A stretch of 10,289 nucleotides of DNA, taken from the IMG/VR virus record IMGVR_UViG_2740892235_000015, positions 1 through 10,289 of that record. One strand, written 5' to 3'. How positions within the stretch are numbered: position 1 is the stretch's first letter; each line of letters begins with the position of its first letter. The notes beneath the pieces are model-generated. The model was given only the letters and a program-made list of their open reading frames with translations. It had not been told where the DNA came from and did not search any database. This document shows, in pieces, positions 1 through 10,289 of the stretch. Source of the stretch: a virus. Taxonomy: Duplodnaviria; Heunggongvirae; Uroviricota; Caudoviricetes. The position numbers and the translations under genes are program-made.

Positions 1-1242
1 ATGGCGAGAAAAACACCCCCATTAACCACAGTACAGATCAAAGCAGCCAGACCAGCAGAAAAGGAATACACCCTACAGGACGGCGGAGGGCTTTTTCTCC
101 TGATCAAACCGTCCGGATCAAAACTCTGGAGATTTTCCTACTACCGACCATCGGACAAAAAAAGAATATTGCTGAGTTTTGGATCGCTTGATGATGTTTC
201 CCTGGCTGATGCCAGAAAACGCCGTAGCGAGTACAGGGCGTTAATTCGTGCCGGAACTGACCCGCAGGACCACGAGAGGCAAAAAAGAGAGACAGAGGCC
301 CGAAGACAAGGGAACACGTTCGAAAATGTGGCAACAGCATGGTACCAGGTGAAAATCAGCCAGAATCTGGCCCCCAATACGATTAAAGACATCTGGCGAT
401 CGCTGGAAAAATATGTATTCCCGTTCATCGGCAACACGCCAATAGACACCCTGACCGCTCGCAGGTTCGTTGAGGTGCTTACCCCCATCAAGGAACGTGG
501 CAACCTGGAAACGCTCAAGCGAGTTTTACAGCGTATAAATGAGGTAATGGATTACGCCGCCAATAGTGGGATGATTGATGCCAATCCGGCTATGAATGTG
601 CGTAAGGCGTTCCCCTCCCCTGTAAAAAAACATATGCCAACAATCCGCCCCGAACAGCTGCCGGAGCTTATGCAGGCTTTATCAGTATCGGCAACAGAAC
701 GGCAGACCAGATTACTGATTGAATGGCAGTTACTGACCGTAACCCGTCCCGTTGAAGCATCGTCGGCACGCTGGGAAGAAATCGACATGGAAGCGCAACG
801 CTGGACCATACCCGCCGGACGCATGAAGATGCGCCGCGACCACGTTATCCCGCTTTGTGACCAGGCTATGGCAGTGCTGGAGGCTATGAAACCAATCAGC
901 CACCACCGCGATTATGTTTTCCCGAGTCTGAAAGACCCACAGCAGCCGATGAACAGCCAGACCGCTAACGCAGCATTACGACGCATGGGATTCGCTGGCG
1001 TGCTGGTGTCTCATGGATTACGCGCCATATTCAGCACAGCAGCGAACGAAGAAGGCTTTGAGCCGGACGTAATAGAGGCCGCACTTGCCCACGTCGACAC
1101 CAACGAAGTCAGACGGGCATACAACCGGAGCAACTACATAGAAAAACGCATCGTGCTTATGCGCTGGTGGGGCGAATTTGTCGAGGCTGCGGCGACGGGC
1201 GTAACCCTCGCCAGTGGTAAAAGGGGTATCCGAGCCGTTTAG
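1..1242 (+). CDS. int: Tyrosine recombinase, P4/CP4-57-type phage integrase
   Basis: 413-aa ORF. C-terminal catalytic signature of tyrosine recombinases (SHGLRAIFSTAANE ... EVRRAYNRSNY with terminal Tyr) and an N-terminal arm-binding-like region. Followed by an alpA-like gene as in P4-like islands. The window starts exactly at its ATG, so the att site would lie upstream, outside the window. Confidence 0.93.
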   Translation: MARKTPPLTTVQIKAARPAEKEYTLQDGGGLFLLIKPSGSKLWRFSYYRPSDKKRILLSFGSLDDVSLADARKRRSEYRALIRAGTDPQDHERQKRETEARRQGNTFENVATAWYQVKISQNLAPNTIKDIWRSLEKYVFPFIGNTPIDTLTARRFVEVLTPIKERGNLETLKRVLQRINEVMDYAANSGMIDANPAMNVRKAFPSPVKKHMPTIRPEQLPELMQALSVSATERQTRLLIEWQLLTVTRPVEASSARWEEIDMEAQRWTIPAGRMKMRRDHVIPLCDQAMAVLEAMKPISHHRDYVFPSLKDPQQPMNSQTANAALRRMGFAGVLVSHGLRAIFSTAANEEGFEPDVIEAALAHVDTNEVRRAYNRSNYIEKRIVLMRWWGEFVEAAATGVTLASGKRGIRAV

Positions 1243-1340
1243 CTGTACAGAAAACCAGTAAAAACTACGAAAACCATTTAAAACCGTCGTATAATTGCAT
1301 CACATTTAACGACGAGGCCTTGAAAAATGAAACTGTTAAG

Positions 1341-1571
1341 ATGCAAACAAATTTCAGATGCAATTGCGACGGGCTGCAACTGGCCCTGATGGTTCAGCAT
1401 GAATTTTGGTCAACCTACGATCCGGAGGACAGAACGACGGCCCCATCAAAAAAACAGGTAGTAGATTTCCTGGTATCCCGTGGGGCTTCCAGAAATCTGG
1501 CTGTAAGTATTGATAAGGTTGTACGTCCGGCATCCATGAAGACCGGAGGCAGGCCAAAAAAATGGCGGTAA
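1341..1571 (+). CDS. Hypothetical small protein (76 aa from ATG 1341; alternative TTG start at 1320)
   Basis: ORF ends 10 nt before a canonical rho-independent terminator. A perfect -10 hexamer TATAAT lies at 1290-1295, with a poor -35. The overlapping minus-strand ORF 1354..1620 has a less protein-like composition. No recognisable domain. Confidence 0.3.
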   Translation: MQTNFRCNCDGLQLALMVQHEFWSTYDPEDRTTAPSKKQVVDFLVSRGASRNLAVSIDKVVRPASMKTGGRPKKWR

Positions 1572-1581
1572 CAATCCTGAA

Positions 1582-1605
1582 AGCGGCAGAAATGCCGCTT
1601 TTTTT
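1582..1605 (+). terminator. Rho-independent terminator
   Basis: Stem AGCGGCA / TGCCGCT (7 bp) with loop GAAA, followed by a run of 7 T. Confidence 0.6.
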
Positions 1606-1632
1606 ATAAATCCCTTTCAAATCATCAATATA

Positions 1633-1720
1633 AAAAACGGTGTATACCGTTTAAAAACGGTGAGTACTGTTTTTCCCTGCATCCGATGATTTACCGTATT
1701 TCTCACCGGAATACACCGGA
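1633..1720 (+). promoter_or_regulatory. Repeat-rich region upstream of alpA (candidate promoter/operator or recombinase-binding sites)
   Basis: Direct repeat AAAAACGGTG at 1633-1642 and 1653-1662 (20-bp spacing). Inverted repeat ACGGT-gtat-ACCGT at 1637-1650. Direct repeat ACCGGA at 1705-1710 and 1715-1720. GAGG SD at 1726-1729, 9 nt before the alpA ATG. Confidence 0.3.
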
Positions 1721-1738
1721 TTAATGAGGTAAATCACG

Positions 1739-1945
1739 ATGGAAGCAATCAAAAAAGTCATCTTTCGCCAGGAAGTAAAAAAACTTATCCACATTAAGGC
1801 AGACAGCACGCTGCAAAGCATGATCAACGCCGGAGAATTCCCGCAGGGTTTTCGTGTCGGTTTGCGCCGTCGCGGATGGTATGAGGAAGACGTAATCGCA
1901 TGGATGAAAGAACGAGAACAAGAAGCGCGCGGAACGACCGCTTAA
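1739..1945 (+). CDS. alpA: AlpA-family helix-turn-helix regulator (prophage excision/transcription activator-like)
   Basis: 68 aa. Sequence pattern typical of the AlpA family (KKLIHIKADSTLQSMINAGEFPQGFRVGLRRRGWYEEDVIAWMKE). Position immediately downstream of int. GAGG SD. Confidence 0.8.
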   Translation: MEAIKKVIFRQEVKKLIHIKADSTLQSMINAGEFPQGFRVGLRRRGWYEEDVIAWMKEREQEARGTTA

Positions 1946-2066
1946 CATATATAGGGCAAATGATGAACATAAAAAAAGCGGCCCCGAAATGGAGCCACCT
2001 TTCTGAACAATTAACCCGCTGCGCCGTATGTGTCAACAATCATAAGCCTGGGCATGATAACCGCGA

Positions 2067-2270
2067 TCAGGCTGGTGGGCAATTATCTTTCTTGTTGGGG
2101 CCGTATTGTGCTGCCATTTTCATCCGTTCAGAACGTGAATATTTTTTTAGAAACTCATCAAGGACAAAAGCGCATGGTGCGAATCTTTCTGATTCATGCT
2201 CGAGCGCCATATTTTCGTGCTCTCTGTTCGTTTTTTGCGATGGTGTATCGGTTGATTCTTTATTGGTCAT
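2067..2270 (-). CDS. Hypothetical small protein (67 aa), second gene of RHH operon 1
   Basis: Minus-strand ORF starting MTNKESTD. Its ATG and first three codons (ATGACCAA) lie inside the conserved R1 element directly downstream of the RHH gene. SD is weak (AGG). No recognisable domain. Confidence 0.45.
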   Translation of the reverse strand: MTNKESTDTPSQKTNREHENMALEHESERFAPCAFVLDEFLKKYSRSERMKMAAQYGPNKKDNCPPA

Positions 2271-2323
2271 TGTGTGTACCTGTAAAGCAATGCGCCGTAG
2301 TACCTCACGCCACGGCGCTGATG
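2263..2323 (-). repeat. R1 copy a: conserved intercistronic element with stem-loop
   Basis: 45-nt core at 2279-2323 is identical to 3460-3504. Contains a hairpin, stem GCGCCGT / ACGGCGC with a 13-nt loop. TTGGTCAT at 2263-2270 (the start-codon region of the downstream minus gene) is also shared, with an 8-nt variable spacer between. Confidence 0.85.
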
Positions 2324-2327
2324 TTTT

Positions 2328-2501
2328 TTATCCTTTGGGTTCAATACCGCGTTGCTGTAATTCTTTTCGGAGTACTCGCTTGATCCAGGTGGCTAAAGAA
2401 GTGTCACCGTCTGCTTTCGCTGCCTCTTCAAGTTGTGCTCTGAATTCTTCTGGTAGCCGCATTTGGTATGGAGGCGATCGCTTTTCCAATGGTGTTGACA
2501 T
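2328..2501 (-). CDS. Ribbon-helix-helix (Arc/MetJ/CopG-type) DNA-binding protein, 57 aa
   Basis: Hand translation of the minus strand gives MSTPLEKRSPPYQMRLPEEFRAQLEEAAKADGDTSLATWIKRVLRKELQQRGIEPKG. The MRLPEEF...L...A......S...WI...L pattern is a classic RHH strand-helix-helix. AAGGG SD 9-10 nt upstream. Not in the supplied ORF track, presumably because it is below the length cutoff. Confidence 0.7.
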   Translation of the reverse strand: MSTPLEKRSPPYQMRLPEEFRAQLEEAAKADGDTSLATWIKRVLRKELQQRGIEPKG

Positions 2502-2541
2502 GGTAATTACCCTTAATTACTATAGTTACATGGTAATTACC
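2498..2541. promoter_or_regulatory. Candidate operator: two copies of the perfect palindrome GGTAATTACC
   Basis: ACATGGTAATTACC at 2498-2511 and 2528-2541, 30 bp centre to centre, with a TAATTAC half-site between them (2514-2520). Lies in the divergent region abutting the RHH start codon and upstream of the rightward leader. Confidence 0.5.
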
Positions 2542-2569
2542 ATTGTACTTACCGTTATACAAAAAACAA

Positions 2570-2611
2570 CGCCCCGCAGTGGTGGCTCACATACGGGGCG
2601 TCTAACCAAAC
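2570..2611 (+). repeat. R2 copy a: leader stem-loop plus conserved TCTAACCAA tail
   Basis: CGCCCCG-ca-GTG-gtggct-CAC-ata-CGGGGCG (2570-2600) followed by TCTAACCAAAC (2601-2611), then GAGG SD and ATG at 2632. Same architecture as 3822-3860. Confidence 0.6.
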
Positions 2612-2631
2612 CATTAATTGAGGTAACGATT

Positions 2632-2718
2632 ATGGCTATAAAAGAGCATAGCTTACTCTTTATACACNNNNNNNNNNTTCGCTGGCGGTTATGCAACTTA
2701 GTGCTGATATGGCGCTGA
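2632..2718 (+). pseudogene. Probable degenerate or interrupted Ash/Icd-like paralog
   Basis: Starts MAIKEHSLLFIH, paralleling the MVAVNHIPHLVH start of the 3881 gene, with the same upstream leader element. Interrupted after 12 codons by the N run. Reads IWR then stop after the gap where the paralog has VWRFLAL. Frame across the gap is unknowable. Confidence 0.3.
2668..2677. other. Run of 10 N (unknown sequence, possible scaffold gap or masked bases)
   Basis: Directly visible in the sequence. Confidence 1.
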
Positions 2719-2767
2719 ATGAGGCCAAAGCTATCCTGATTGCTGATTGTGAAAATGGGGGGGGGTT

Positions 2768-3001
2768 ATGCGTGATGATCGTTTTTATTCCCTGAAACAA
2801 GAATTTTCCGGCGTATCTGATGATGCGGCTGATGCGCTTTCGTCAATGCCAGAACTTATTAGAGCGGCTTTTTTCTTACTTTCCACGAAAGAATATAAAT
2901 CAACGGGACTTGATGTACTGAATATCGCCGCCGATTATGCGGAATATGTGGCAGAGGCGCGTTACAGAAGAAAATTTCCTGAGGATGTAAGCCATGCGTG
3001 A
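2768..3001 (+). CDS. Hypothetical small protein (77 aa)
   Basis: ORF MRDDRFYSLKQEF... with helical, protein-like composition. A G9 homopolymer immediately upstream serves as the SD region. The stop overlaps the start of the next ORF (ATGCGTGA), suggesting translational coupling. The opposite-strand ORF 2859..3116 looks like antisense noise. Confidence 0.5.
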   Translation: MRDDRFYSLKQEFSGVSDDAADALSSMPELIRAAFFLLSTKEYKSTGLDVLNIAADYAEYVAEARYRRKFPEDVSHA

Positions 3002-3210
3002 TATTTACCACGAAACAACAGAACGCGTATTTCTTGCACTTTCTCACAGTGAAAACATGCTGGAAATATTGCGCATATGGCTTGAAACACTTGGCGACAA
3101 TGAACGCGACAAACAAAAATCAAGAATTGTCACGGCATTAATAACGCTTCTTGAGCCTGTAATAAATGAGTTGCAGGAAATAGAGACATTGCACGACAGA
3201 TATAACGAAC
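2994..3210 (+). CDS. Hypothetical small acidic protein (at least 72 aa; 3' end lost in N run)
   Basis: ORF MRDIYHETTERVFLALSHSENMLEILRIWLETLGDNERDKQK..., with GAGGA SD at 2981-2985. Net acidic and helical. Runs into the N run at 3211, so the true stop is undefined. The 292-aa extension in the ORF track is antisense to real minus-strand genes and is not credible. Confidence 0.45.
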
Positions 3211-3220
3211 NNNNNNNNNN
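3211..3220. other. Run of 10 N (unknown sequence, possible scaffold gap or masked bases)
   Basis: Directly visible in the sequence. Lies between convergent genes. Confidence 1.
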
Positions 3221-3223
3221 TAC

Positions 3224-3451
3224 TCATCCTGGCGGGCGATTCTTACGGGACTTTAGCCGCCGTGGGCAGCTTGCTAAAAATGCCTCCAACGCGAATAGTC
3301 CAGGTTTCATTTCTATCGGTATTAGTTGGATATTCAGAGGATTAGCCAGTTCGGCTTCAAGGCGAGCACAGGTTTCTAACTGCCTTTGCCGAATGATTTC
3401 ATCTTCTTGCGTATGCGTGTCTTGTATTGGTGATAGTGTGTTGTTGGTCAT
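3224..3451 (-). CDS. Hypothetical small protein (75 aa), second gene of RHH operon 2
   Basis: Minus-strand ORF starting MTNNTLSP. Start region ATGACCAA is shared with the 2067..2270 gene and embedded in the R1 element. The stop codon is reached before the N run, so the ORF is complete as shown. No recognisable domain. Confidence 0.45.
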   Translation of the reverse strand: MTNNTLSPIQDTHTQEDEIIRQRQLETCARLEAELANPLNIQLIPIEMKPGLFALEAFLASCPRRLKSRKNRPPG

Positions 3452-3504
3452 GGTACTGCCCTGTAAAGCAATGCGCCGTAGTACCTCACGCCACGGCGCT
3501 GATG
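3444..3504 (-). repeat. R1 copy b: conserved intercistronic element with stem-loop
   Basis: 45-nt core at 3460-3504 is identical to 2279-2323. TTGGTCAT at 3444-3451 is also shared. Sits between the stop of RHH gene 2 and the start of the downstream small gene. Confidence 0.85.
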
Positions 3505-3508
3505 GTGA

Positions 3509-3688
3509 TTATTCTGATTCTTTGGCCTTGCGACGCTGGCGGTATTCAACTTCCCGCTTTAATGCAGCTGTAACAAACTGCCCTGTACTTTCGCCGGGCA
3601 TTTTTACCGCCTCAACATTGTTCATAACTTCATGTGGAACCCTTGCCGCAACTGTTTGTGATTTTGCGTTTACTGCTTTTGTCGCCAT
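3509..3688 (-). CDS. Probable ribbon-helix-helix DNA-binding protein, 59 aa
   Basis: From ATG at 3688: MATKAVNAKSQTVAARVPHEVMNNVEAVKMPGESTGQFVTAALKREVEYRQRRKAKESE. RHH-like strand (TVAARVPHEV) followed by two short helices. GAGGGG SD 8 nt upstream. The ORF-track start at 3697 is a GTG. Confidence 0.6.
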   Translation of the reverse strand: MATKAVNAKSQTVAARVPHEVMNNVEAVKMPGESTGQFVTAALKREVEYRQRRKAKESE

Positions 3689-3717
3689 GTTGAGCACCCC
3701 TCATAAAAAACAAATGC

Positions 3718-3814
3718 AGTATGCAGGAAAAAAAATAAGTGTTCAACACTTGACGTGTTTAACACCTCGATTTAAATTGGTGTTCAACACCTTATTTAGG
3801 CAAGGTGTTGAAAC
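3718..3814. promoter_or_regulatory. Divergent promoter/operator region of module 2
   Basis: Rightward sigma70-like promoter: -35 TTGACG (3750-3755), 17-nt spacer, -10 TAAATT (3773-3778). Leftward: -35 TTGAAC (complement of 3741-3746), 17-nt spacer, -10 CATACT (complement of 3718-3723). Inverted-repeat motif GTGTT-N-AACAC at 3739-3749, 3755-3765 and 3780-3790, plus a half-site variant at 3805-3814, overlapping both promoters. Confidence 0.5.
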
Positions 3815-3820
3815 GACGAA

Positions 3821-3860
3821 ACCCCGCACTGTAGGAGCAGTAACGGGGCTTCTAACCAAC
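3821..3860 (+). repeat. R2 copy b: leader stem-loop plus conserved TCTAACCAAC tail
   Basis: CCCCG-c-ACTG-taggag-CAGT-aa-CGGGG (3822-3848) followed by TCTAACCAAC (3851-3860), then AGGAG SD and ATG at 3881. Both stems differ in sequence from copy a but keep the same architecture. Confidence 0.6.
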
Positions 3861-3880
3861 AACGTAAACTAGGAGCCGTT

Positions 3881-4444
3881 ATGGTTGCTGTAAATCATAT
3901 ACCACACCTTGTACACACACAAACTGCCTTTGTGTGGCGTTTTCTGGCCCTGAATATCGGAGAAAAAAACCAGTTGATCGCCAGTGTCGAAAATAGCTAT
4001 GATTCCCGCGCACCTCATAAAACGGGTGTCGGGATTAGCCTCCTGAAAACAACTGAAGCGCACAGCACGCGCCCCGCGTGTTTTTTTGTGCCGCATAGTC
4101 ACACCTTATCAATGGTGGGCTGTACGGGGGCGGAGCAATCCGCGCCGGTTTCTTCAGTGTCCGGTAAGGCTAACCCTGTACAGTCCGCCACCAGCGAAAT
4201 TAGCCTTTTGCGTGGCGGTTATCTTAACCACACTGAGGAGGCTGCCAACATGGCTACTACCCCTGCCCTCGTACATTCTCAAACAGCCTTTATCTGGCGC
4301 TTTATTGCCTTTGGCGCGTCAGACCATCAAATCATCCACGTAACCGCCTGGACGGAACGCGAAGCGCGTAACCGTTGCCCGTACGGTTGTGTTGCTGTGT
4401 TCGCCGCCCGTATTCGTCAGGGGGCGCACCATGCACAATTATGA
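3881..4444 (+). CDS. Tandem-repeat protein, possibly Ash/Icd-like (P4-associated family)
   Basis: 187 aa with an internal duplication: LVHTQTAFVWRFLAL near the N-terminus and LVHSQTAFIWRFIAF around residue 130. AGGAG SD at 3871-3875. An in-frame internal ATG at 4250 is preceded by GAGGAGG (4235-4241). Family assignment is from memory of Icd-like sequences (FxWRF and NRC motifs) and is unverified. Confidence 0.55.
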   Translation: MVAVNHIPHLVHTQTAFVWRFLALNIGEKNQLIASVENSYDSRAPHKTGVGISLLKTTEAHSTRPACFFVPHSHTLSMVGCTGAEQSAPVSSVSGKANPVQSATSEISLLRGGYLNHTEEAANMATTPALVHSQTAFIWRFIAFGASDHQIIHVTAWTEREARNRCPYGCVAVFAARIRQGAHHAQL

Positions 4445-4631
4445 AGCGCACTTACCTGTAGTTCTTAATGTGCCGTCAGATTATACGGGACGCGTTTTGA
4501 TATTTCTCGATAAAGGGAAAGTGAAATCACAATGCCGCCTTAGAAATAATGAGGTTGTTGGTTCTCTGGCTTTTTTTTCTGAGGCCTGTATTCGTGCCGG
4601 AATAAAACTTGAATCACTGACAGGAAAATAA
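4431..4631 (+). CDS. Hypothetical small protein (66 aa)
   Basis: ATG at 4431 preceded by a GGGGG SD. Overlaps the 3' end of the upstream gene by 14 nt. No recognisable domain. Confidence 0.4.
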   Translation: MHNYEAHLPVVLNVPSDYTGRVLIFLDKGKVKSQCRLRNNEVVGSLAFFSEACIRAGIKLESLTGK

Positions 4632-4636
4632 AAACC

Positions 4637-4936
4637 ATGAAAAAGAAAAATTCTGGCTTTACTGCCAGTGACTTCTCTCGGCCTGAAATCCGCCCCGGCG
4701 ATATTTTCCGTGATAACTACGGCGGTACGGTAACGATTAAAGGCGTGGCAGAACGGCGCATCACCTACCGTCGTGAAGGCTACGAATATGATTGCGTGAT
4801 GCCTGTTTATCAGTTCCGGCGTGATTTTTCTCTGGTACAGACCGCGCCGCATAACGTGCCCACCTGCAGGGAGAAAGCACGCGCCAATATTCAGAAGATG
4901 AAAAACATGATTAACGGATTCAGGGGCAAGAAATGA
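4637..4936 (+). CDS. Hypothetical protein (99 aa)
   Basis: ORF with AGGAAA SD-like sequence. Its stop overlaps the start of the replication ATPase gene (ATGA), suggesting co-translation within the replication operon. Confidence 0.5.
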   Translation: MKKKNSGFTASDFSRPEIRPGDIFRDNYGGTVTIKGVAERRITYRREGYEYDCVMPVYQFRRDFSLVQTAPHNVPTCREKARANIQKMKNMINGFRGKK

Positions 4937-6330
4937 AAAGCGCACCGAACTTAAAAAAACAGCCTTACGACAAGATGACCGAAGTCATCATTTTTGCGGG
5001 TAGTGATGCGTGGGCACATGCGAAACAGTGGCAGGAACAGGACGGGCGACTGGCTGGCGATAATGTGCCTCCCATTGTGCTGGCTGATGATCAACTGGAT
5101 GAACTGGCAGACCTGAGAATCATCGACGAGGGGCGCTATTGTGTCCGGCTGTACAAGGCAGGCCACATCAGGCCATCAAATATTAATGCCATTGCGCACA
5201 AGCTGGCGGCGGCGGGCGTAACTGATGCGAATTATTACCCCGAAGGGATACACAGCCAGAAGCGGGAGAACTGGCGCGAATATCTGGAACGGGAGCGGGG
5301 GAAAAAGCCAGGGGAAGAACACCACCAGCGAAAAACCACGCTACCGATGAGCGTTGGATCTGCCGGATACGACACGCAATTAGATTACGTGGTAAAGGGG
5401 ATTATTCCGGCATCGTCGCTATGCAGCATATACGGGGCAAGCGGTTCCTATAAATCATTCCTTGCGGGTTCGTGGGCGTGTCACGTTTCCACGGGCCGCC
5501 AGTGGGGAGGCCGCAGGGTGGCGCATGGCGCTGTTCTCTATGTGGTTGGTGAAGGCGGTATCGGCGTTCCGCGTCGTGTAAAAGCCTGGGAGGTTGTGCA
5601 CGGTGAGCAGGTGAAAAATCTGTATCTGGTAAACCGTCCAGTTTTTCCGGCTGTCCCGCTTGATGTTGATGAACTGGTTATCGCTGCCCGTCAGGTGGAG
5701 CGGGAAACGGGTAAACCTGTACGCATGATTATTCTTGATACTCTGGCGCGTTGCTTTGGTGGCAATGATGAAAATGATTCCCGTGATATGGGGGCGTTTA
5801 TCCGTGGGTGTGACGAGCTTAAACGGCGCACAGGGGCCACGGTGCTGGTGGTTCACCATTCCGGCAAGGATGAGACGAAAGGCGCGCGCGGTTCCAGTGC
5901 ATTTCGTGCATCACTGGATGCTGAATACCGGATACGCAGGGAGGACGCAGGAAGCGAAGCGCTGGTTATCTCATGCACCAAAATGAAGGACGCGGAGGAA
6001 CTCAAAGAAGCCGCATATGACTTACGCGTGGTGGAGCTTTTTACCGACGCTGACGGGGAGTTAATCACGTCGCTGGTGGTGGTGGATAAGCCGCGCCCTC
6101 CCGTTGAACTGGAGCGCATCGAGGAGGCAGGCAACAAGACGGAAAACCATACCGCGCTATGGGGATGCATACGTTCACGCACACAGCACGGCGACAAGTG
6201 CACGATCCCGCTGTTACGTGACGATATGAAAAAGCTGGGGTATGACACAAAACACCTTAAACGATGGTTAGCCAAACTGGAAAAAGACGACGTGATCTAC
6301 ATTGACGGTGATGATGTAGGACCACTGTAA
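4933..6330 (+). CDS. Replication ATPase/helicase, RecA-fold (RepA/AAA_25-like) with uncharacterised N-terminal domain
   Basis: 465 aa. Walker A GASGSYKS (aa 168-175), Walker B-like RMIILDT, and a VVHHSGKDETKG motif typical of RepA-like RecA-fold helicase-ATPases. The iteron array starts immediately after the stop codon. Confidence 0.88.
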   Translation: MKSAPNLKKQPYDKMTEVIIFAGSDAWAHAKQWQEQDGRLAGDNVPPIVLADDQLDELADLRIIDEGRYCVRLYKAGHIRPSNINAIAHKLAAAGVTDANYYPEGIHSQKRENWREYLERERGKKPGEEHHQRKTTLPMSVGSAGYDTQLDYVVKGIIPASSLCSIYGASGSYKSFLAGSWACHVSTGRQWGGRRVAHGAVLYVVGEGGIGVPRRVKAWEVVHGEQVKNLYLVNRPVFPAVPLDVDELVIAARQVERETGKPVRMIILDTLARCFGGNDENDSRDMGAFIRGCDELKRRTGATVLVVHHSGKDETKGARGSSAFRASLDAEYRIRREDAGSEALVISCTKMKDAEELKEAAYDLRVVELFTDADGELITSLVVVDKPRPPVELERIEEAGNKTENHTALWGCIRSRTQHGDKCTIPLLRDDMKKLGYDTKHLKRWLAKLEKDDVIYIDGDDVGPL

Positions 6331-6532
6331 AAAGTGGGCATTAAAAGTGGGAAAGGTGGGCAATTTAACGGAATTTTAACAAAATTACCCACTTTCCCAC
6401 GTGTATATATCCCAAAAAGTGGGCACTAAAAAAATACCTATGAAACAAGATGATATAAATCCCAAATTTCCCACGTTGGACGAAGTGGGAAAACGTAAAA
6501 AGTGGGCGAAAAAAGTGGGTAGAGGTGGGCAA
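6331..6532. repeat. Iteron array, candidate origin of replication
   Basis: About ten copies of (A)AAGTGGG(C/A)A or GGTGGGCAA in both orientations: direct at 6331-6340, 6343-6354, 6354-6363, 6416-6425, 6483-6493, 6497-6508, 6511-6520, 6522-6532; inverted at 6388-6400 and 6467-6474. An AT-rich stretch lies between them (6365-6412). Confidence 0.6.
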
Positions 6533-6784
6533 ATGACTCAAAAACACAGAGACAGAACAGAGCCAAAATATAAAGCGTTAGACATGACAGAGCACGCCTT
6601 AAAGGTGGCAATCAGAACGATAGACCGCCACGCGGGGGAAGGATACGCGAAGGAACATCCCGACCTGATAAGCGCATTCATGACCACAGCAGCAGCAAAC
6701 TTTGCCACGCTGACAGAACGGGAGATTGCCGAAGCGGAACAGGTAACAACAATCAACGTTAAAACCGGAGAGGTGGAATCATGA
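6533..6784 (+). CDS. Hypothetical protein (83 aa)
   Basis: ATG at 6533 with GAGG SD at 6522-6525. Start chosen downstream of the iterons rather than the ORF-track start at 6401. Stop overlaps the SSB start (ATGA). Confidence 0.5.
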   Translation: MTQKHRDRTEPKYKALDMTEHALKVAIRTIDRHAGEGYAKEHPDLISAFMTTAAANFATLTEREIAEAEQVTTINVKTGEVES

Positions 6785-7203
6785 CAGCACAGATAGCCGC
6801 TTACGGGCGGCTGGTGGCTGACCCACAGTTAAAGACCACCAGCAAGGGTACACAAATGGCGATGGCGAGTATGGCTGTCCCCCTGCCGTGCAGCCAGGCC
6901 GATGACGGAACGGCGACGATGTGGTTATCCGTCCTGGCGTTTGGCAGACAGGCCGACGCACTGGCAAAACACCACAAAGGCGAACTGGTGAGCGTGGCGG
7001 GTAACATGCAGGTGAGCCAGTGGACAGGCCAGAACGGCGAAACGCGGCAGGGCTGGCAGGTTATCGCTGACAGCGTAATCAGTGCCAGAACGGCGCGACC
7101 AGGTGGTAAAAAAGGCCAGCAGGGCCAGGCTACTGACGCACTGAACAGGGCAAAACAACAGGCGGGTAACGATGATCCGTACGGGGATAACATACCGTTT
7201 TAA
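6781..7203 (+). CDS. ssb: Single-stranded DNA-binding protein (SSB-like)
   Basis: 140 aa. OB-fold-like core resembling SSB (AFGRQA...KGELV.V.G.MQ...WT.Q.GE.R.GW). Gly/Gln-rich linker and a C-terminal acidic tail ending DNIPF, like the DDDIPF tail of bacterial SSB. Confidence 0.75.
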   Translation: MTAQIAAYGRLVADPQLKTTSKGTQMAMASMAVPLPCSQADDGTATMWLSVLAFGRQADALAKHHKGELVSVAGNMQVSQWTGQNGETRQGWQVIADSVISARTARPGGKKGQQGQATDALNRAKQQAGNDDPYGDNIPF

Positions 7204-7219
7204 GCAACGAGTGACAGAA

Positions 7220-7241
7220 GCCGGAGCAATCCGGCTTTTTT
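7220..7241 (+). terminator. Rho-independent terminator
   Basis: Stem GCCGGA / TCCGGC with loop GCAA, followed by T6. Lies 17 nt after the SSB stop. Confidence 0.7.
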
Positions 7242-7248
7242 GTAGGTA

Positions 7249-7430
7249 CTCCTGGTGGGGGTGGCCTGTCCACGGGGCGGGCGGCGCGGAAAAAAGCGCA
7301 TTTTTTGATTTTTATGGCACCATCACCACCACTATAAGTTATTGATATATTGAAGAATAAAAATTTTTAGTGTCGAATCAGGTTGTTTTTTGTTCATCAC
7401 TGGAGCGTTCCCGAAAGCATTTACAAAAAA
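7249..7430 (+). repeat. R3 copy a: duplicated intergenic control module
   Basis: GC-rich block at 7249-7312 nearly identical to 9786-9850. Shared TATAAGT (7333-7339), AGGTTGTTTTTTGTTC (7380-7395) and TTTACAAAAAA (7420-7430), with the same spacings as in copy b. Confidence 0.8.
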
Positions 7431-7669
7431 ACAGGCGCAAAAAAAGCGCCCCCGATTGCTGTTACCGGAGGCGCTTTTACACGACAAAGGAGTTTTTATC
7501 GCCAGGATGACGAGTCTTAATATTGCTTCAATAGCAAAAATGCGTCAATGGCTTTGCCTCTCTGAGAATAATCAGAAAAATCATAATCTGATTTTATGGT
7601 AGAAAATAATTTATCTATTACTTTTATCGATCAATAATGATGCCCGTTAATCAAAACGGAGGCGGATTT

Positions 7670-7864
7670 ATGCCAGAGAACAACACCAGAAAGCCGGATA
7701 AAAGTGCCACGGTACACATAGACGCCGGAACTATGGAGAAGATCGAACGCTATCAGCAGTTCATCAAAGATAATCACCCGGGTATGCCAGTGCCCACGAA
7801 AGGACAAATCACACGCAGCGCGGTTGAATACTGGTACAGGGCAACGTTAGGAGCCTGGCTATGA
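7670..7864 (+). CDS. Hypothetical small protein (64 aa)
   Basis: ATG at 7670 with GGAGG SD at 7658-7662. Stop overlaps the start of the protease/capsid gene (ATGA). No recognisable domain. Confidence 0.5.
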   Translation: MPENNTRKPDKSATVHIDAGTMEKIERYQQFIKDNHPGMPVPTKGQITRSAVEYWYRATLGAWL

Positions 7865-9750
7865 AAACATGGTTTTCCATTAAGGCTATGGCAGATGTTG
7901 TACATGTGCGCATTTATGACGAGATCGGCGGGTACGGTGTAAAAGCATCGGCACTTACTGACGAGATCAACGCGTGTGGTAATGCGTCTGAAATCCATCT
8001 TCGCATCCATTCACCTGGTGGCGACATCTTTGAAGGGCTGGCTATCTATAACGCTCTGAAAAATCATCCGGCAAAAAAAATCGTACACATTGAAGGCATG
8101 GCGGCTTCTATGGCGTCGTTTATTGCCATGTGTGGAGATCACATCGTTATGCCTGAAAACGCGATGATGATGATACATGCCCCCCGTGGTGTTACTGCCG
8201 GAGTGTCGGGCGACGTTCGCCGCTTTGCTGATCTGATGGACAAGCTGGGCGACACGATGGCAGAAACCTATGCCGGAAGAACGGGCAGGAGCAAACAGGA
8301 GATCACCTCAATGATGGAGGCGGAAACCTGGATGGATGGCAATGAGTGTAAGGCTAACGGCTTCGCAGATGAGGTTATACCCGCGATTACAGCAATGGCC
8401 CGAATTGAATCAAAACGAATCGGAGATTTTTCAAATATGCCGGAAAAAATTAAAAGCATGATCAGCCAGAAAACTGGCAGTGGCGAACAGGAACGACTTA
8501 ACGGAATCCGTGAATTGTTTGGCACCTTCAACGGAAGATATAACGACCTGGCTATAAGTTGTCTTGCGGATTCAGAATGTAGCGTTGAGAATGCACGCGA
8601 ACGCCTTTTACTCGCTATGGGTAAAGAATCAACGCCAACAAACAAAACCACCCCCGCAAATCTTTACTACGCGTACACGGATAACGGCAATATAACTGGC
8701 GATGCCATGCGTCAGGGGCTTAATGCGCGTCTTGGTCACGAACGGGCCGAACGCGGTAATCCTTACGCCATGATGAGTCTTTTCGATATGGCACAGGCAT
8801 CATTAACCCATCGTGGTATAAGCACGGGCAGCTACAGCACACGCTCGCAGATAGTAAACGCGGCATTCACCCACAGCAGCAGCGATTTTACAGATATCCT
8901 TGCTGGTGGCGCTGAAAAATCAGTGCTTGCAGGCTGGGAGCACAGCGGCGAAACATTCCGCCAGTGGACGAAAAAAGGTTCCCTTTCAAACTTCCGGGAA
9001 GCCCGCCGCGTTGGTATGAATGGCTTCTCAACGTTAAACAAAGTGCCGGAAGGGGCAGAATATAAATACATCACCACCAGCGATCGCGGTGAACCCATCG
9101 CGCTGGCTACTTACGGGAATATTTTCAGCATTACCCGCCAGGCGATAATCAATGATGACCTTGATCAGTTATCAACGGTGCCAATGGCTATGGGCCGTGC
9201 AGCATCAAGAACGGTGGGAAATCTGGTTAATCTGGTGCTTACAGGCAACGTAAAACTTTCTGACGGAATAACGCTGTTTGACAAAAAACACAGCAACCTG
9301 ATTGAAGCAGGACTGACAACACCGGGACTTAGTGCAGCACGTCACCTGATGCGCACACAGAAGGACAAAAATGGCGAAGTGCTGAATATTGCGCCTAAAT
9401 TCCTTTTAGTTCCGGCAGCACTGGAAGATCGCGCGTTGCAGATGATTAACTCAACCGCACCTTTCGGGGCTGATAAAAACAGCGGGATCTTTAACCCGTA
9501 CCACAAGCTACTTGATATCATCGTCGATCCCCGCCTTGATGATATCAGCGAAAAACAATGGTACATGCTTTCCGCACAGGGAACGGACACAATCGAGGTG
9601 GCTTATCTTGATGGCAATGACGAGCCTTACCTTGAACAGCAGGAAGGTTTTATCGTTGACGGCGTGGCCTGGAAAGTCCGTATTGATGCAGGTGTGGCAG
9701 CTCTGGATTATCGCGGTATGGTCAAATCAGGCGGTACCGATTCACTATGA
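7861..9750 (+). CDS. Prohead protease (ClpP-like, S14) fused to HK97-like major capsid protein
   Basis: 629 aa. The N-terminal ~190 aa match the ClpP pattern (IHSPGGDIFEGLAIYNALK ... GMAASMASFIAMCGD ... MMIHAPRGV, compare ClpP INSPGG, AASMGAF, MIHQP). The C-terminal ~300 aa resemble the HK97-fold major capsid family. A linker or scaffold-like region lies between. AGGAG SD. Confidence 0.88.
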   Translation: MKTWFSIKAMADVVHVRIYDEIGGYGVKASALTDEINACGNASEIHLRIHSPGGDIFEGLAIYNALKNHPAKKIVHIEGMAASMASFIAMCGDHIVMPENAMMMIHAPRGVTAGVSGDVRRFADLMDKLGDTMAETYAGRTGRSKQEITSMMEAETWMDGNECKANGFADEVIPAITAMARIESKRIGDFSNMPEKIKSMISQKTGSGEQERLNGIRELFGTFNGRYNDLAISCLADSECSVENARERLLLAMGKESTPTNKTTPANLYYAYTDNGNITGDAMRQGLNARLGHERAERGNPYAMMSLFDMAQASLTHRGISTGSYSTRSQIVNAAFTHSSSDFTDILAGGAEKSVLAGWEHSGETFRQWTKKGSLSNFREARRVGMNGFSTLNKVPEGAEYKYITTSDRGEPIALATYGNIFSITRQAIINDDLDQLSTVPMAMGRAASRTVGNLVNLVLTGNVKLSDGITLFDKKHSNLIEAGLTTPGLSAARHLMRTQKDKNGEVLNIAPKFLLVPAALEDRALQMINSTAPFGADKNSGIFNPYHKLLDIIVDPRLDDISEKQWYMLSAQGTDTIEVAYLDGNDEPYLEQQEGFIVDGVAWKVRIDAGVAALDYRGMVKSGGTDSL

Positions 9751-9756
9751 CAACAA

Positions 9757-9778
9757 GGCGGCACCAGCCGCCTTTTTT
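9757..9778 (+). terminator. Rho-independent terminator
   Basis: Stem GGCGGC / GCCGCC with loop ACCA, followed by T6. Lies 7 nt after the capsid gene stop. Confidence 0.7.
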
Positions 9779-9785
9779 GCGGGTC

Positions 9786-9969
9786 CTCCTGGTGGGGTGG
9801 GCCTGAACACGGGGCGGGCGGCGCGGAAAAAAGCGCATTTTTTTGATTTTATCGTCATCATCATCATGTGTATAAGTGATTGTTTTTAATTATTTTGATG
9901 TGAAAAAGATGATGAAGAAGGTTGTTTTTTGTTCGACATCTTTTAGCGTGACAGATTCTTTACAAAAAA
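9786..9969 (+). repeat. R3 copy b: duplicated intergenic control module
   Basis: GC-rich block at 9786-9850 nearly identical to 7249-7312. Shared TATAAGT (9871-9877), AGGTTGTTTTTTGTTC (9919-9934) and TTTACAAAAAA (9959-9969). Confidence 0.8.
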
Positions 9970-10007
9970 TCTGAGCTTGTTTTCTTCACCAGCGCGATGG
10001 GGGCACA

Positions 10008-10289
10008 ATGACAGAAGCCGAAATACTGGGATTAATCCGTCGCGTTGCCGGAATCAGCCAGCAGGCTGACGAACAGGCCACGCAGCCGGACAGCGTGACC
10101 GCCGAAAATTATGCGCGTGTGGTTGCTGAGGTGATGCGCCGTGATGGTATTGAGCTTAACGGCGTGGATATGCGCAACATACGAACCAGAGTCCTTGAGT
10201 TGCTGGCATACCGTCGCCGCGTGGAGATGTATCGGGAGAAGGAGAAAATCACGTATCACTGGAAGAAGCCGGAGCGGTTACGGCGGTAA
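10008..10289 (+). CDS. Hypothetical protein (93 aa); its position after the capsid gene suggests a head-completion or connector role, unverified
   Basis: ORF with GGGGG SD. First gene after the second R3 module. The window ends at its stop codon. No motif recognised with confidence. Confidence 0.5.
   Translation: MTEAEILGLIRRVAGISQQADEQATQPDSVTAENYARVVAEVMRRDGIELNGVDMRNIRTRVLELLAYRRRVEMYREKEKITYHWKKPERLRR

Follow-up and report, generated by a model that had tools for sequence, protein, structure and literature searches.

Do two small overlapping genes that appear between the duplicated leftward regulatory modules of a satellite element really belong there, and what might their proteins do? 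The question is raised by a stretch of viral DNA of 10,289 nt (IMG/VR record IMGVR_UViG_2740892235_000015, positions 1 to 10,289), which we refer to as the window, meaning the whole stretch that was analysed. A first-pass annotation, made from the sequence alone, described in it two plus-strand ORFs of 77 and at least 72 amino acids, acidic and helical in composition, and took their place between the modules as a sign that they are accessory or phage-interaction genes. We followed up both the genes and their surroundings, and considered them together with a third gene, ORF0, of which the window holds only the 3' part (Table 1).

Two small conserved genes

Both ORFs exist as described, and much of what had been read from the letters holds. 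They are joined by a stop-start overlap, ATGCGTGA, at 2994-3001. The good Shine-Dalgarno sequences ascribed to them correspond to an SD-like GAGGA located 8 nt upstream of the ORF2 ATG and, for ORF1, to the G9 run itself, which ends 2 nt upstream of the ATG. The two proteins are predicted to be all-helical and are negatively charged, ORF1 having a net charge of -4.4 and ORF2 one of about -7 to -8, with a pI of about 4.8 for both, in agreement with the initial description. The 3' end of ORF2 is indeed lost: its reading frame stays open to the edge of a run of ten Ns, which leaves the ORF short of 5 codons (QHTGE) and the stop codon relative to its full-length relatives of 77 aa.

Table 1. Coordinates of the features discussed. 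Positions are those of the window unless another sequence is named.
Feature	Position	Strand	Remarks
Integrase gene (int)	1..1242		PF00589
Putative regulator ORF	1739..1945		CDS annotated HTH regulator in the near-identical island of CP027457 (L002)
N10 gap, left	2668..2677	.	Left island boundary
ORF0, 3' part (partner gene of ORF1)	2679..2795	+	G9 allele; C-terminal tail ...ENGGGLCVMIVFIP*; 5' end lost in gap
Poly-G tract (G9)	2757..2765	+	ORF0/ORF1 junction; length polymorphic, sets fused versus separate
ORF1	2768..3001	+	ATG to TGA, 77 aa; acidic, helical; phrog_24341 and C-terminal half of phrog_2512
ORF2	2994..3210	+	72 of 77 aa; acidic, predicted two-helix hairpin; phrog_2196
N10 gap, right	3211..3220	.	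Right island boundary
Small ORF (phrog_340) of the window's own early operon	4431..4631	+	66 aa; relatives carry the block at its 3' junction
DUF4222/RgdR-family gene	4637..4936	+	Directly after the phrog_340 ORF; block absent
RepA gene	4933..6330		AAA_25
ClpP-MCP fusion gene	7861..9750		
EcCICFT073, model Gram-negative PICI	CFT073 1377930-1388654		Three CDSs (WP_001372127, WP_001204077, WP_001204962) upstream of c1493 and pri

Several lines of evidence indicate that these are real genes: dN/dS is 0.24 for ORF1 (15 unique alleles) and 0.38 for ORF2 (50 unique alleles, in both cases from fetched loci), and both genes are under purifying selection. No diversifying selection was seen along either gene, with regional dN/dS values of 0.05-0.68 in the alleles sampled. 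The exact ORF1 protein occurs on at least 998 contigs, where its annotation in E. coli is that of a hypothetical protein or a prophage protein, and PGAP annotates both ORF1 and ORF2 as CDSs in complete genomes. [quoted passage not shown] The ORF0-ORF1 region is matched in 904 of 5426 complete E. coli genomes (about one in six), and the only carrier of ORF2 among 185,579 species-representative genomes is Shigella flexneri; the ORF0, ORF1 and ORF2 families appear to be narrow, essentially restricted to E. coli and Shigella.

Database searches leave these proteins close to where the first-pass annotation had put them, as resembling nothing characterised. ORF1 matches phrog_24341 (E 1.4e-39) and the C-terminal half of phrog_2512 (E 1.2e-46), ORF2 matches phrog_2196 (E 8.4e-42), and ORF0 matches phrog_5146 and the N-terminal half of phrog_2512, the full-length HMM matches to the four families having E values from 1e-31 to 1e-90. 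All four PHROGs are annotated as "unknown function", and membership adds no mechanism. Scans of the three proteins with Pfam, NCBIfam and PADLOC returned nothing meaningful, and profile searches of PDB sequences gave no match at E below 0.4. Since neither ORF0-ORF1 nor ORF2 has a tblastn match among 50,697 phage records, the genes would be satellite genes rather than phage genes. A HMMER search of 1.8 billion cluster representatives, with a natural ORF1N-ORF2 fusion (P0122) as the query, yielded 27 clusters that, one spurious match aside, contain short proteins very similar to the query or to pieces of it; the match set aside (P0258, 1147 aa) is an alanine-rich repeat protein. We also considered whether ORF0, ORF1 and ORF2, which share MRD/helical starts, are paralogues of one another, and rejected this relationship at hhalign probabilities below 1%.

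Structure prediction yields an antiparallel two-helix hairpin for the 77-aa ORF2 protein, with helices at residues 2-31 and 35-71 and a pLDDT of 91.5. Foldseek comparison of this predicted hairpin with PDB and BFVD found none with E below 0.001, only generic hairpins and designed helical proteins at E above 0.6. As a fold, a hairpin of helices is generic. For the fused 154-aa ORF0-ORF1 protein the AlphaFold model is helical, with a pLDDT of 48 that makes it unreliable, and it was kept out of the fold search. No enzyme or DNA-binding signature was found in any of the three proteins.

A 533-bp island, probably in the wrong element

The argument from position is the part of the first-pass annotation that does not stand. 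The segment 2678-3210, which includes both ORFs, is an isolated island of 533 bp fenced on either side by a run of ten Ns. The run on the left and the ORF0 remnant upstream of ORF1 had both been overlooked in the first reading. On the left, window 1-2667 is 99.7% identical to positions 1501-4167 of the tRNA-Pro/yejM island of CP027457 (L002), and the match ends exactly at the first gap; on the right, window 3221-6784 matches an element of CP146507 (L016, 5472-9035) at 97% identity without a break, and this match begins exactly after the second gap. In three complete genomes (L001, L002 and L016) the two flanks lie only about 50 bp apart, separated by the spacer ACACAAACGCCCCGGAAACGGAATAATCCGTTTCATAGTTCGGTTTTGTG, whose nested inverted repeats form a hairpin running ACACAAACGCCCC...GGTTTTGTG. 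Hairpins of this type often break short-read assemblies.

The island itself has a perfect match elsewhere. Along its whole 533 bp, and thus also in the G9 tract, it shows 100.000% identity to positions 5911-6443 of L004, a cf-PICI-type island adjoining pntB, where the same sequence stands between a 70-aa ORF and a DUF4222 gene. Moreover, the complete genome CP146507 carries two PICIs, one having an early operon like that of the window without the ORF0-ORF1-ORF2 block and the other having the G9 block, and in a genome with two PICIs of this sort a short contig could come to be scaffolded into the wrong one. Given that the native gene order is found elsewhere and that the order of the window is found in none of the loci examined, the position "between modules" is very probably an artefact of draft assembly or scaffolding, in which a scaffolder would have dropped a 533-bp contig into the hairpin gap of about 50 bp of another PICI lacking the block.

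The alternative is that the arrangement is real, and that an ORF0'-ORF1-ORF2' fragment was inserted between two leftward RHH modules as an accessory, phage-interaction cassette. The window as given does have this order, and PICIs are highly mosaic, with breakpoints at gene boundaries. However, neither end of the fragment is a gene boundary, one lying inside ORF0 and the other 15 nt short of the ORF2 stop codon; the fragment has no promoter of its own; both of its junctions are N10 runs, so that neither has been sequenced; the gap that it occupies is the one of about 50 bp in the three complete genomes; and the arrangement is absent from all 8 encoding contigs, 7 further genome loci and 80 IMG/VR loci. 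We consider a real insertion very improbable.

The native place of the block

The genes have a native place, and it is the rightward early operon of PICIs, composed of an icd-like gene, 0 to 2 small ORFs, ORF0, ORF1, ORF2, a DUF4222 gene (RgdR family) and the replicase gene. All eight contigs that encode the exact ORF1 protein show the same order where they extend far enough for it to be read: int, AlpA and leftward small RHH genes, including YlcI/YnfO, are followed by the operon, with a 70-aa ORF (77-aa in L009) between the icd-like gene and ORF0. The genes of this early operon are linked by overlapping or closely abutting start and stop codons. Among 80 IMG/VR loci found with ORF2, ORF1 lies upstream of it in 76, and of the 76 in which downstream genes could be detected, 75 have DUF4222 after it. 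RepA (AAA_25) helicases and D5-type primases serve as the replicase about equally often in these loci, and the morphogenesis modules downstream are of diverse kinds (HK97-type capsid with S78 protease and portal; lambda E-type capsid with decoration protein; TerS with capsid; ClpP-MCP fusion). The suggestion that the two ORFs are accessory genes of a satellite element holds, even though the place first assigned to them lay elsewhere, between the leftward modules and not upstream of DUF4222/RgdR and the replicase.

The element into which the island was apparently scaffolded is a PICI in its own right, 96% identical over 86% of the length of the window to the tRNA-Pro/yejM island of CP027457. 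It has the gene content of a Gram-negative PICI of the EcCICFT073 type, namely an integrase, a putative AlpA-type regulator, a replicase (RepA, accompanied by SSB) and a capsid-related gene, and no tail or lysis genes. The ORF at 1739-1945 has no Pfam match in the window, and its probable identity as AlpA is based on its position and on relatives with PF05930. The complete packaging module of a cf-PICI (capsid, protease, portal, adaptors, TerS, TerL) was not found in the element, which has only the ClpP-MCP fusion and a 93-aa ORF; the near-identical island of CP027457 likewise ends before yejO without portal or terminase genes. The donor-type locus, L004, carries capsid, S78 protease and portal genes. 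Both Gram-negative PICIs and cf-PICIs have been described previously (PMC6092414; bioRxiv 10.1101/2022.09.08.507074; PMC10111431).

The window's own early operon runs from the icd-like gene through the 66-aa ORF to DUF4222 with no Ns and no space for the ORF0-ORF1-ORF2 block. All 12 complete genomes listed share this block-less junction at 100% identity (15 records reach 99% or more), and the DUF4222/RepA allele of the window, where the block is absent, is identical to that of loci with the block (L003, L005, L011). Because the same RepA and DUF4222 alleles occur with and without the block, and because the presence of the block follows neither the replicase type nor the capsid module, it appears to be accessory, dispensable for the replicase and untied to the capsid or helper module.

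A slippage-prone poly-G tract and a bipartite gene

The view of the locus as two overlapping ORFs needs one correction. Both ORFs exist, but ORF1 is the second, C-terminal half of a bipartite ORF0-ORF1 gene, a single CDS of 154 or 155 aa in many genomes, and the length of a slippage-prone poly-G tract at the junction decides whether one chain or two are encoded. The G7 allele (L001, and the O157:H7/O145 genomes sampled) gives one CDS of 154 aa and the G10 allele one of 155 aa. The G8 allele gives two with a ATGCGTGA overlap, of 79 and 77 aa in L002 and L003 and of 73 aa each for ORF0 and ORF1 in CFT073; with the G9 allele (the window, L004, L005 and L007) ORF0 is 86 aa long and shares 28 nt with ORF1; and the G11 allele, found in L008, again gives two proteins. 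In an IMG/VR sample of 54 loci the tract lengths were distributed as G6:1, G7:15, G8:24, G9:10, G10:3 and G11:1. Five fused 154-aa proteins among the homologues found have the ORF1 of the window as their C-terminal half. The 86-aa form of ORF0 (G9) is present on 701 contigs and the 79-aa form (G8) on 388, and the abundance of the former argues that G9 is a heritable allele and not a read error.

A coding homopolymer that varies among close relatives and shifts the reading frame, here from G6 to G11 and through all three frames, is one mark of a contingency (phase-variable) locus, another being frequent reversible switching in a clonal population with an effect on phenotype. The fused form of 391 bp (G7-length) is nevertheless common to all 15 O157:H7/O145 genomes in the sample, which suggests that the poly-G alleles are lineage-stable rather than rapidly switching. 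The natural fusion and fission of ORF0 and ORF1 point, by Rosetta-stone reasoning, to two proteins that may work as one unit or complex. Programmed ribosomal frameshifting at the tract was also considered and seems unlikely: the shift required would be +1 for G8 but -1 for G9, and whatever the tract length ORF1 keeps a start codon of its own.

That the ORF1 of the window is a mere remnant of a frameshifted (G9) 154-aa gene, either a pseudogene fragment or the product of a homopolymer sequencing error, would accord with the very common continuous 154/155-aa protein of the G7 and G10 alleles and with the break that G9 makes in the fused frame, but is hardly credible when L004, L005 and L007, and with them the complete genome CP146507, have an identical G9 allele, when the 701 contigs with its 86-aa ORF0 are counted, when the split G8 form is the commonest class (24 of 54) and includes EcCICFT073, and when ORF1 retains its own ATG with a G-rich SD-like sequence and is still under purifying selection.

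Relation to characterised elements

ORF0, ORF1 and ORF2 are already catalogued as hypothetical proteins, RefSeq WP entries and PHROGs, and the model PICIs EcCICFT073 and OI-51 are among their carriers. In EcCICFT073 the homologues of ORF1 and ORF2 occupy the same operon position as in the native block, the order being icd-like gene, 76-aa ORF, ORF0 (73 aa, G8), ORF1 variant, ORF2, DUF4222 and primase. The ORF1 variant of 73 aa is 85% identical over 68 aa and has a different allele as its C-terminal tail, while ORF2 (77 aa) is 90% identical to that of the window. The element also resembles the window in its int, AlpA-type HTH, leftward YlcI/YnfO RHH genes, SSB and capsid gene, and differs in its replicase, which is a primase and not a RepA helicase. 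Published genetics has passed close to these genes: the interference screen carried out in EcCICFT073 covered only the genes downstream of ori (PMC6739421), the mutants described concern only int, alpA, pri, c1499 and c1500 (PMC6739421, PMC6092414), and those of EcCIEDL933 only packaging genes. Helper-phage- and AlpA-dependent induction is known for both EcCICFT073 and EcCIEDL933 (PMC6092414; bioRxiv 10.1101/2022.09.08.507074).

A more distant counterpart is found in O-island 51 of E. coli O157:H7 (CP-933C or Sp7, which is the cf-PICI EcCIEDL933), where ECs1580 (Z1841) lies directly upstream of rgdR (ECs1581) and a primase gene. The Sakai ECs1580 protein, of 80 aa, acidic and in an ORF2-like position, is a remote homologue of ORF2 with 29% identity over 58 aa (E 4.5e-8 against a database of 11 proteins). 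Sp7 differs in that ECs1580 is very divergent and in that no homologues of ORF0 or ORF1 lie upstream of it. Deletion mapping of z1835-z1843 assigned LEE activation to rgdR and not to Z1841 (PMC3378721).

What the proteins may do

RgdR (ECs1581), the neighbour that recurs in these comparisons, is a basic protein of 99 aa (pI 10.09) with non-specific DNA binding, which activates LEE1 and type III secretion and represses motility (PMC3378721, PMC10877973); from a plasmid it complements LEE activation on its own (PMC3378721). The adjacency of ORF2 and DUF4222, seen at nearly every locus, is the strongest association of the block, and the 3' end of ORF2 supplies the Shine-Dalgarno sequence of rgdR/DUF4222 (GGAGAATAAAAATAATG). 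On the other hand, a single ORF2 allele is found next to DUF4222 alleles about 19% apart at the DNA level, and the boundary between the two genes is exactly where recombination breakpoints lie, so that this mixed pairing and these breakpoints give no sign of allele-specific co-evolution.

AlpA activates genes of EcCICFT073 after helper induction (PMC6092414). Assuming that the block is among these AlpA-activated genes, a helper phage would switch on the operon through AlpA, and ORF0, ORF1 and ORF2 would be made early. They would most plausibly be acidic and alpha-helical, lack enzymatic activity and exert their effect through binding to other proteins, with ORF0 and ORF1 forming an accessory complex, either two-chain or fused, and ORF2 working with or on the small basic regulator RgdR/DUF4222 as a partner or modulator. 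The latter link is weakly supported; what favours it is synteny (down to 29% identity in Sp7), the Shine-Dalgarno sequence supplied by the 3' end of ORF2, and the opposite charges of the two proteins. We give the explanation as a whole, that is, native PICI early genes, a misplaced contig, a bipartite ORF0-ORF1 gene, protein-binding modulators and an ORF2-RgdR link, a probability of roughly 55%.

The proteins could instead be host-takeover or counter-defence inhibitors that bind a protein of the host or of the helper phage and block it, perhaps as DNA mimics or anti-repressor-like factors, and that are expressed together with the Icd-like division inhibitor. Their acidic, all-helical nature (pI 4.8) and lack of catalytic motifs would suit such a role, as would their place in a series of small early genes, variable in content and translationally coupled, of which the first is a host division inhibitor, their patchy presence or absence among otherwise similar PICIs, and the independence of the block from the type of capsid or helper module. 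Yet the searches of Pfam, NCBIfam, PADLOC, PDB and Foldseek (PDB, BFVD) showed no similarity to anti-defence proteins or DNA mimics (Ocr, ArdA, Gam) or to defence components, the anti-restriction families of Pfam and the solved structures included, and the genes are absent from sequenced phages. Arms-race proteins are often under diversifying selection, whereas dN/dS is below 1 here and no hypervariable segment was seen in the alleles sampled. We regard an inhibitory role as rather unlikely.

Small proteins encoded beside replicases often modulate them, and the replicase gene always follows closely after the block within one operon. In the satellite P4 the early left operon has the order kil, eta, cI, epsilon, orf151, cnr, alpha, and it is possible to imagine ORF0, ORF1 and ORF2 as accessory factors that assist the PICI replicase, whether as a loader or as regulators of origin remodelling or copy number, by analogy with cnr and orf151 upstream of the alpha primase. 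The likeness to P4 is one of position only, small proteins standing between a host-killing or division-inhibiting gene and the satellite's primase-helicase, and there is no sequence similarity by tblastn in the 50,697 phage records, among which P4 is presumed to be. PICIs and P4 are moreover regarded as separate lineages (PMC6092414). The available data argue against this replication role, which we hold to be unlikely: the block accompanies an AAA_25 RepA helicase about as often as a D5_N/DUF5906 primase, although these replicase types are unrelated, and the same RepA allele is found with and without it.

Returning to the protein-binding modulators that we prefer, a bolder form of this reading can be put forward. 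ORF2 would be a hairpin antagonist or chaperone of RgdR/DUF4222 that couples PICI induction to the pleiotropic RgdR control of LEE type III secretion and motility in EHEC, and the poly-G tract would be a heritable switch between a single two-domain ORF0-ORF1 protein and a two-chain complex. That both parts should be true together strikes us as distinctly unlikely.

Conclusions

Nothing in this locus is categorically new, and the finding is an ordinary one. It does illustrate that N-bounded islands in draft scaffolds can create false gene neighbourhoods, and the fusion/fission polymorphism explains why the ORF0/ORF1 locus is annotated inconsistently, as one CDS or as two. The remaining interest lies in this homopolymer-driven polymorphism and in the block of early genes itself, which stands beside the virulence regulator RgdR, in islands that affect EHEC colonisation (PMC3378721).

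Duplicated modules and other features of the satellite

The duplication of the leftward YlcI/YnfO-like bicistrons is real, and it is found in complete genomes too (locus L002, CP027457). About 50 bp that the window lacks between 2667 and 3221 are present in three compared genome loci, L001 (4111-4160), L002 and L016 (CP146507). This sequence, located between the two leftward modules, contains nested inverted repeats (ACACAAAC...GTTTTGTG and GAAACGG...CCGTTTC); it may serve as a regulatory hairpin or as a terminator.

Coordinates of features in the window
Feature	Window positions	Strand	Description
Paralogous leftward bicistrons (two)	2067-2501; 3224-3697	minus	YlcI/YnfO-like ribbon-helix-helix gene, then 67-75-aa ORF
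64-bp junction repeat, 91%	2260-2323; 3441-3504		common to both leftward bicistrons
187-aa ORF	3881-4444		single, unbroken; Ash domain (PF10554) and Icd-like division-inhibitor domain (NF033153)
DUF4222 protein	4637-4936		RgdR family
38-bp direct repeat, 87%	6327-6363; 6495-6532		immediately 3' of RepA helicase gene
116-bp direct repeat, 83.6% identity	7231-7344; 9768-9882		on either side of ClpP-protease/major-capsid fusion gene

In place of the one Ash/Icd-like ORF, PGAP annotates a partial "ash" pseudogene and a 64-aa Icd-like CDS in the complete genome of L016, which is 97% identical. Iteron-bearing PICI replication origins have been reported just downstream of the replicase, the position that the 38-bp repeat occupies relative to RepA. 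Since two cos sites have been reported in EcCICFT073, the model Gram-negative PICI of strain CFT073 (PMC6092414), the copies of the 116-bp repeat may, by analogy, correspond to cos1 and cos2. The DUF4222 protein is 71% identical to the basic regulator RgdR (ECs1581 in Sakai) and carries R-P-G-D at the site of the RGD motif, the arginine of which is required for activation by RgdR of the LEE type III secretion locus (PMC3378721).

Small early-operon genes in other genomes

A PICI of the same type, with ORF0-ORF1-ORF2, lies in a lambdoid prophage, inserted into the gene for the large terminase subunit (L003, NZ_CP077477.1 479024-488186); it is a helper-embedded PICI of the kind described in PMC10111431.

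Two proteins are natural in-frame deletion fusions. In P0122 (126 aa, 36 contigs), ORF1 residues 1-48 are followed by the complete ORF2, and in P0243 (78 aa) the N-terminus of ORF1 runs into the C-terminus of ORF2; ORF1-ORF2 chimeras are therefore able to persist in genomes.
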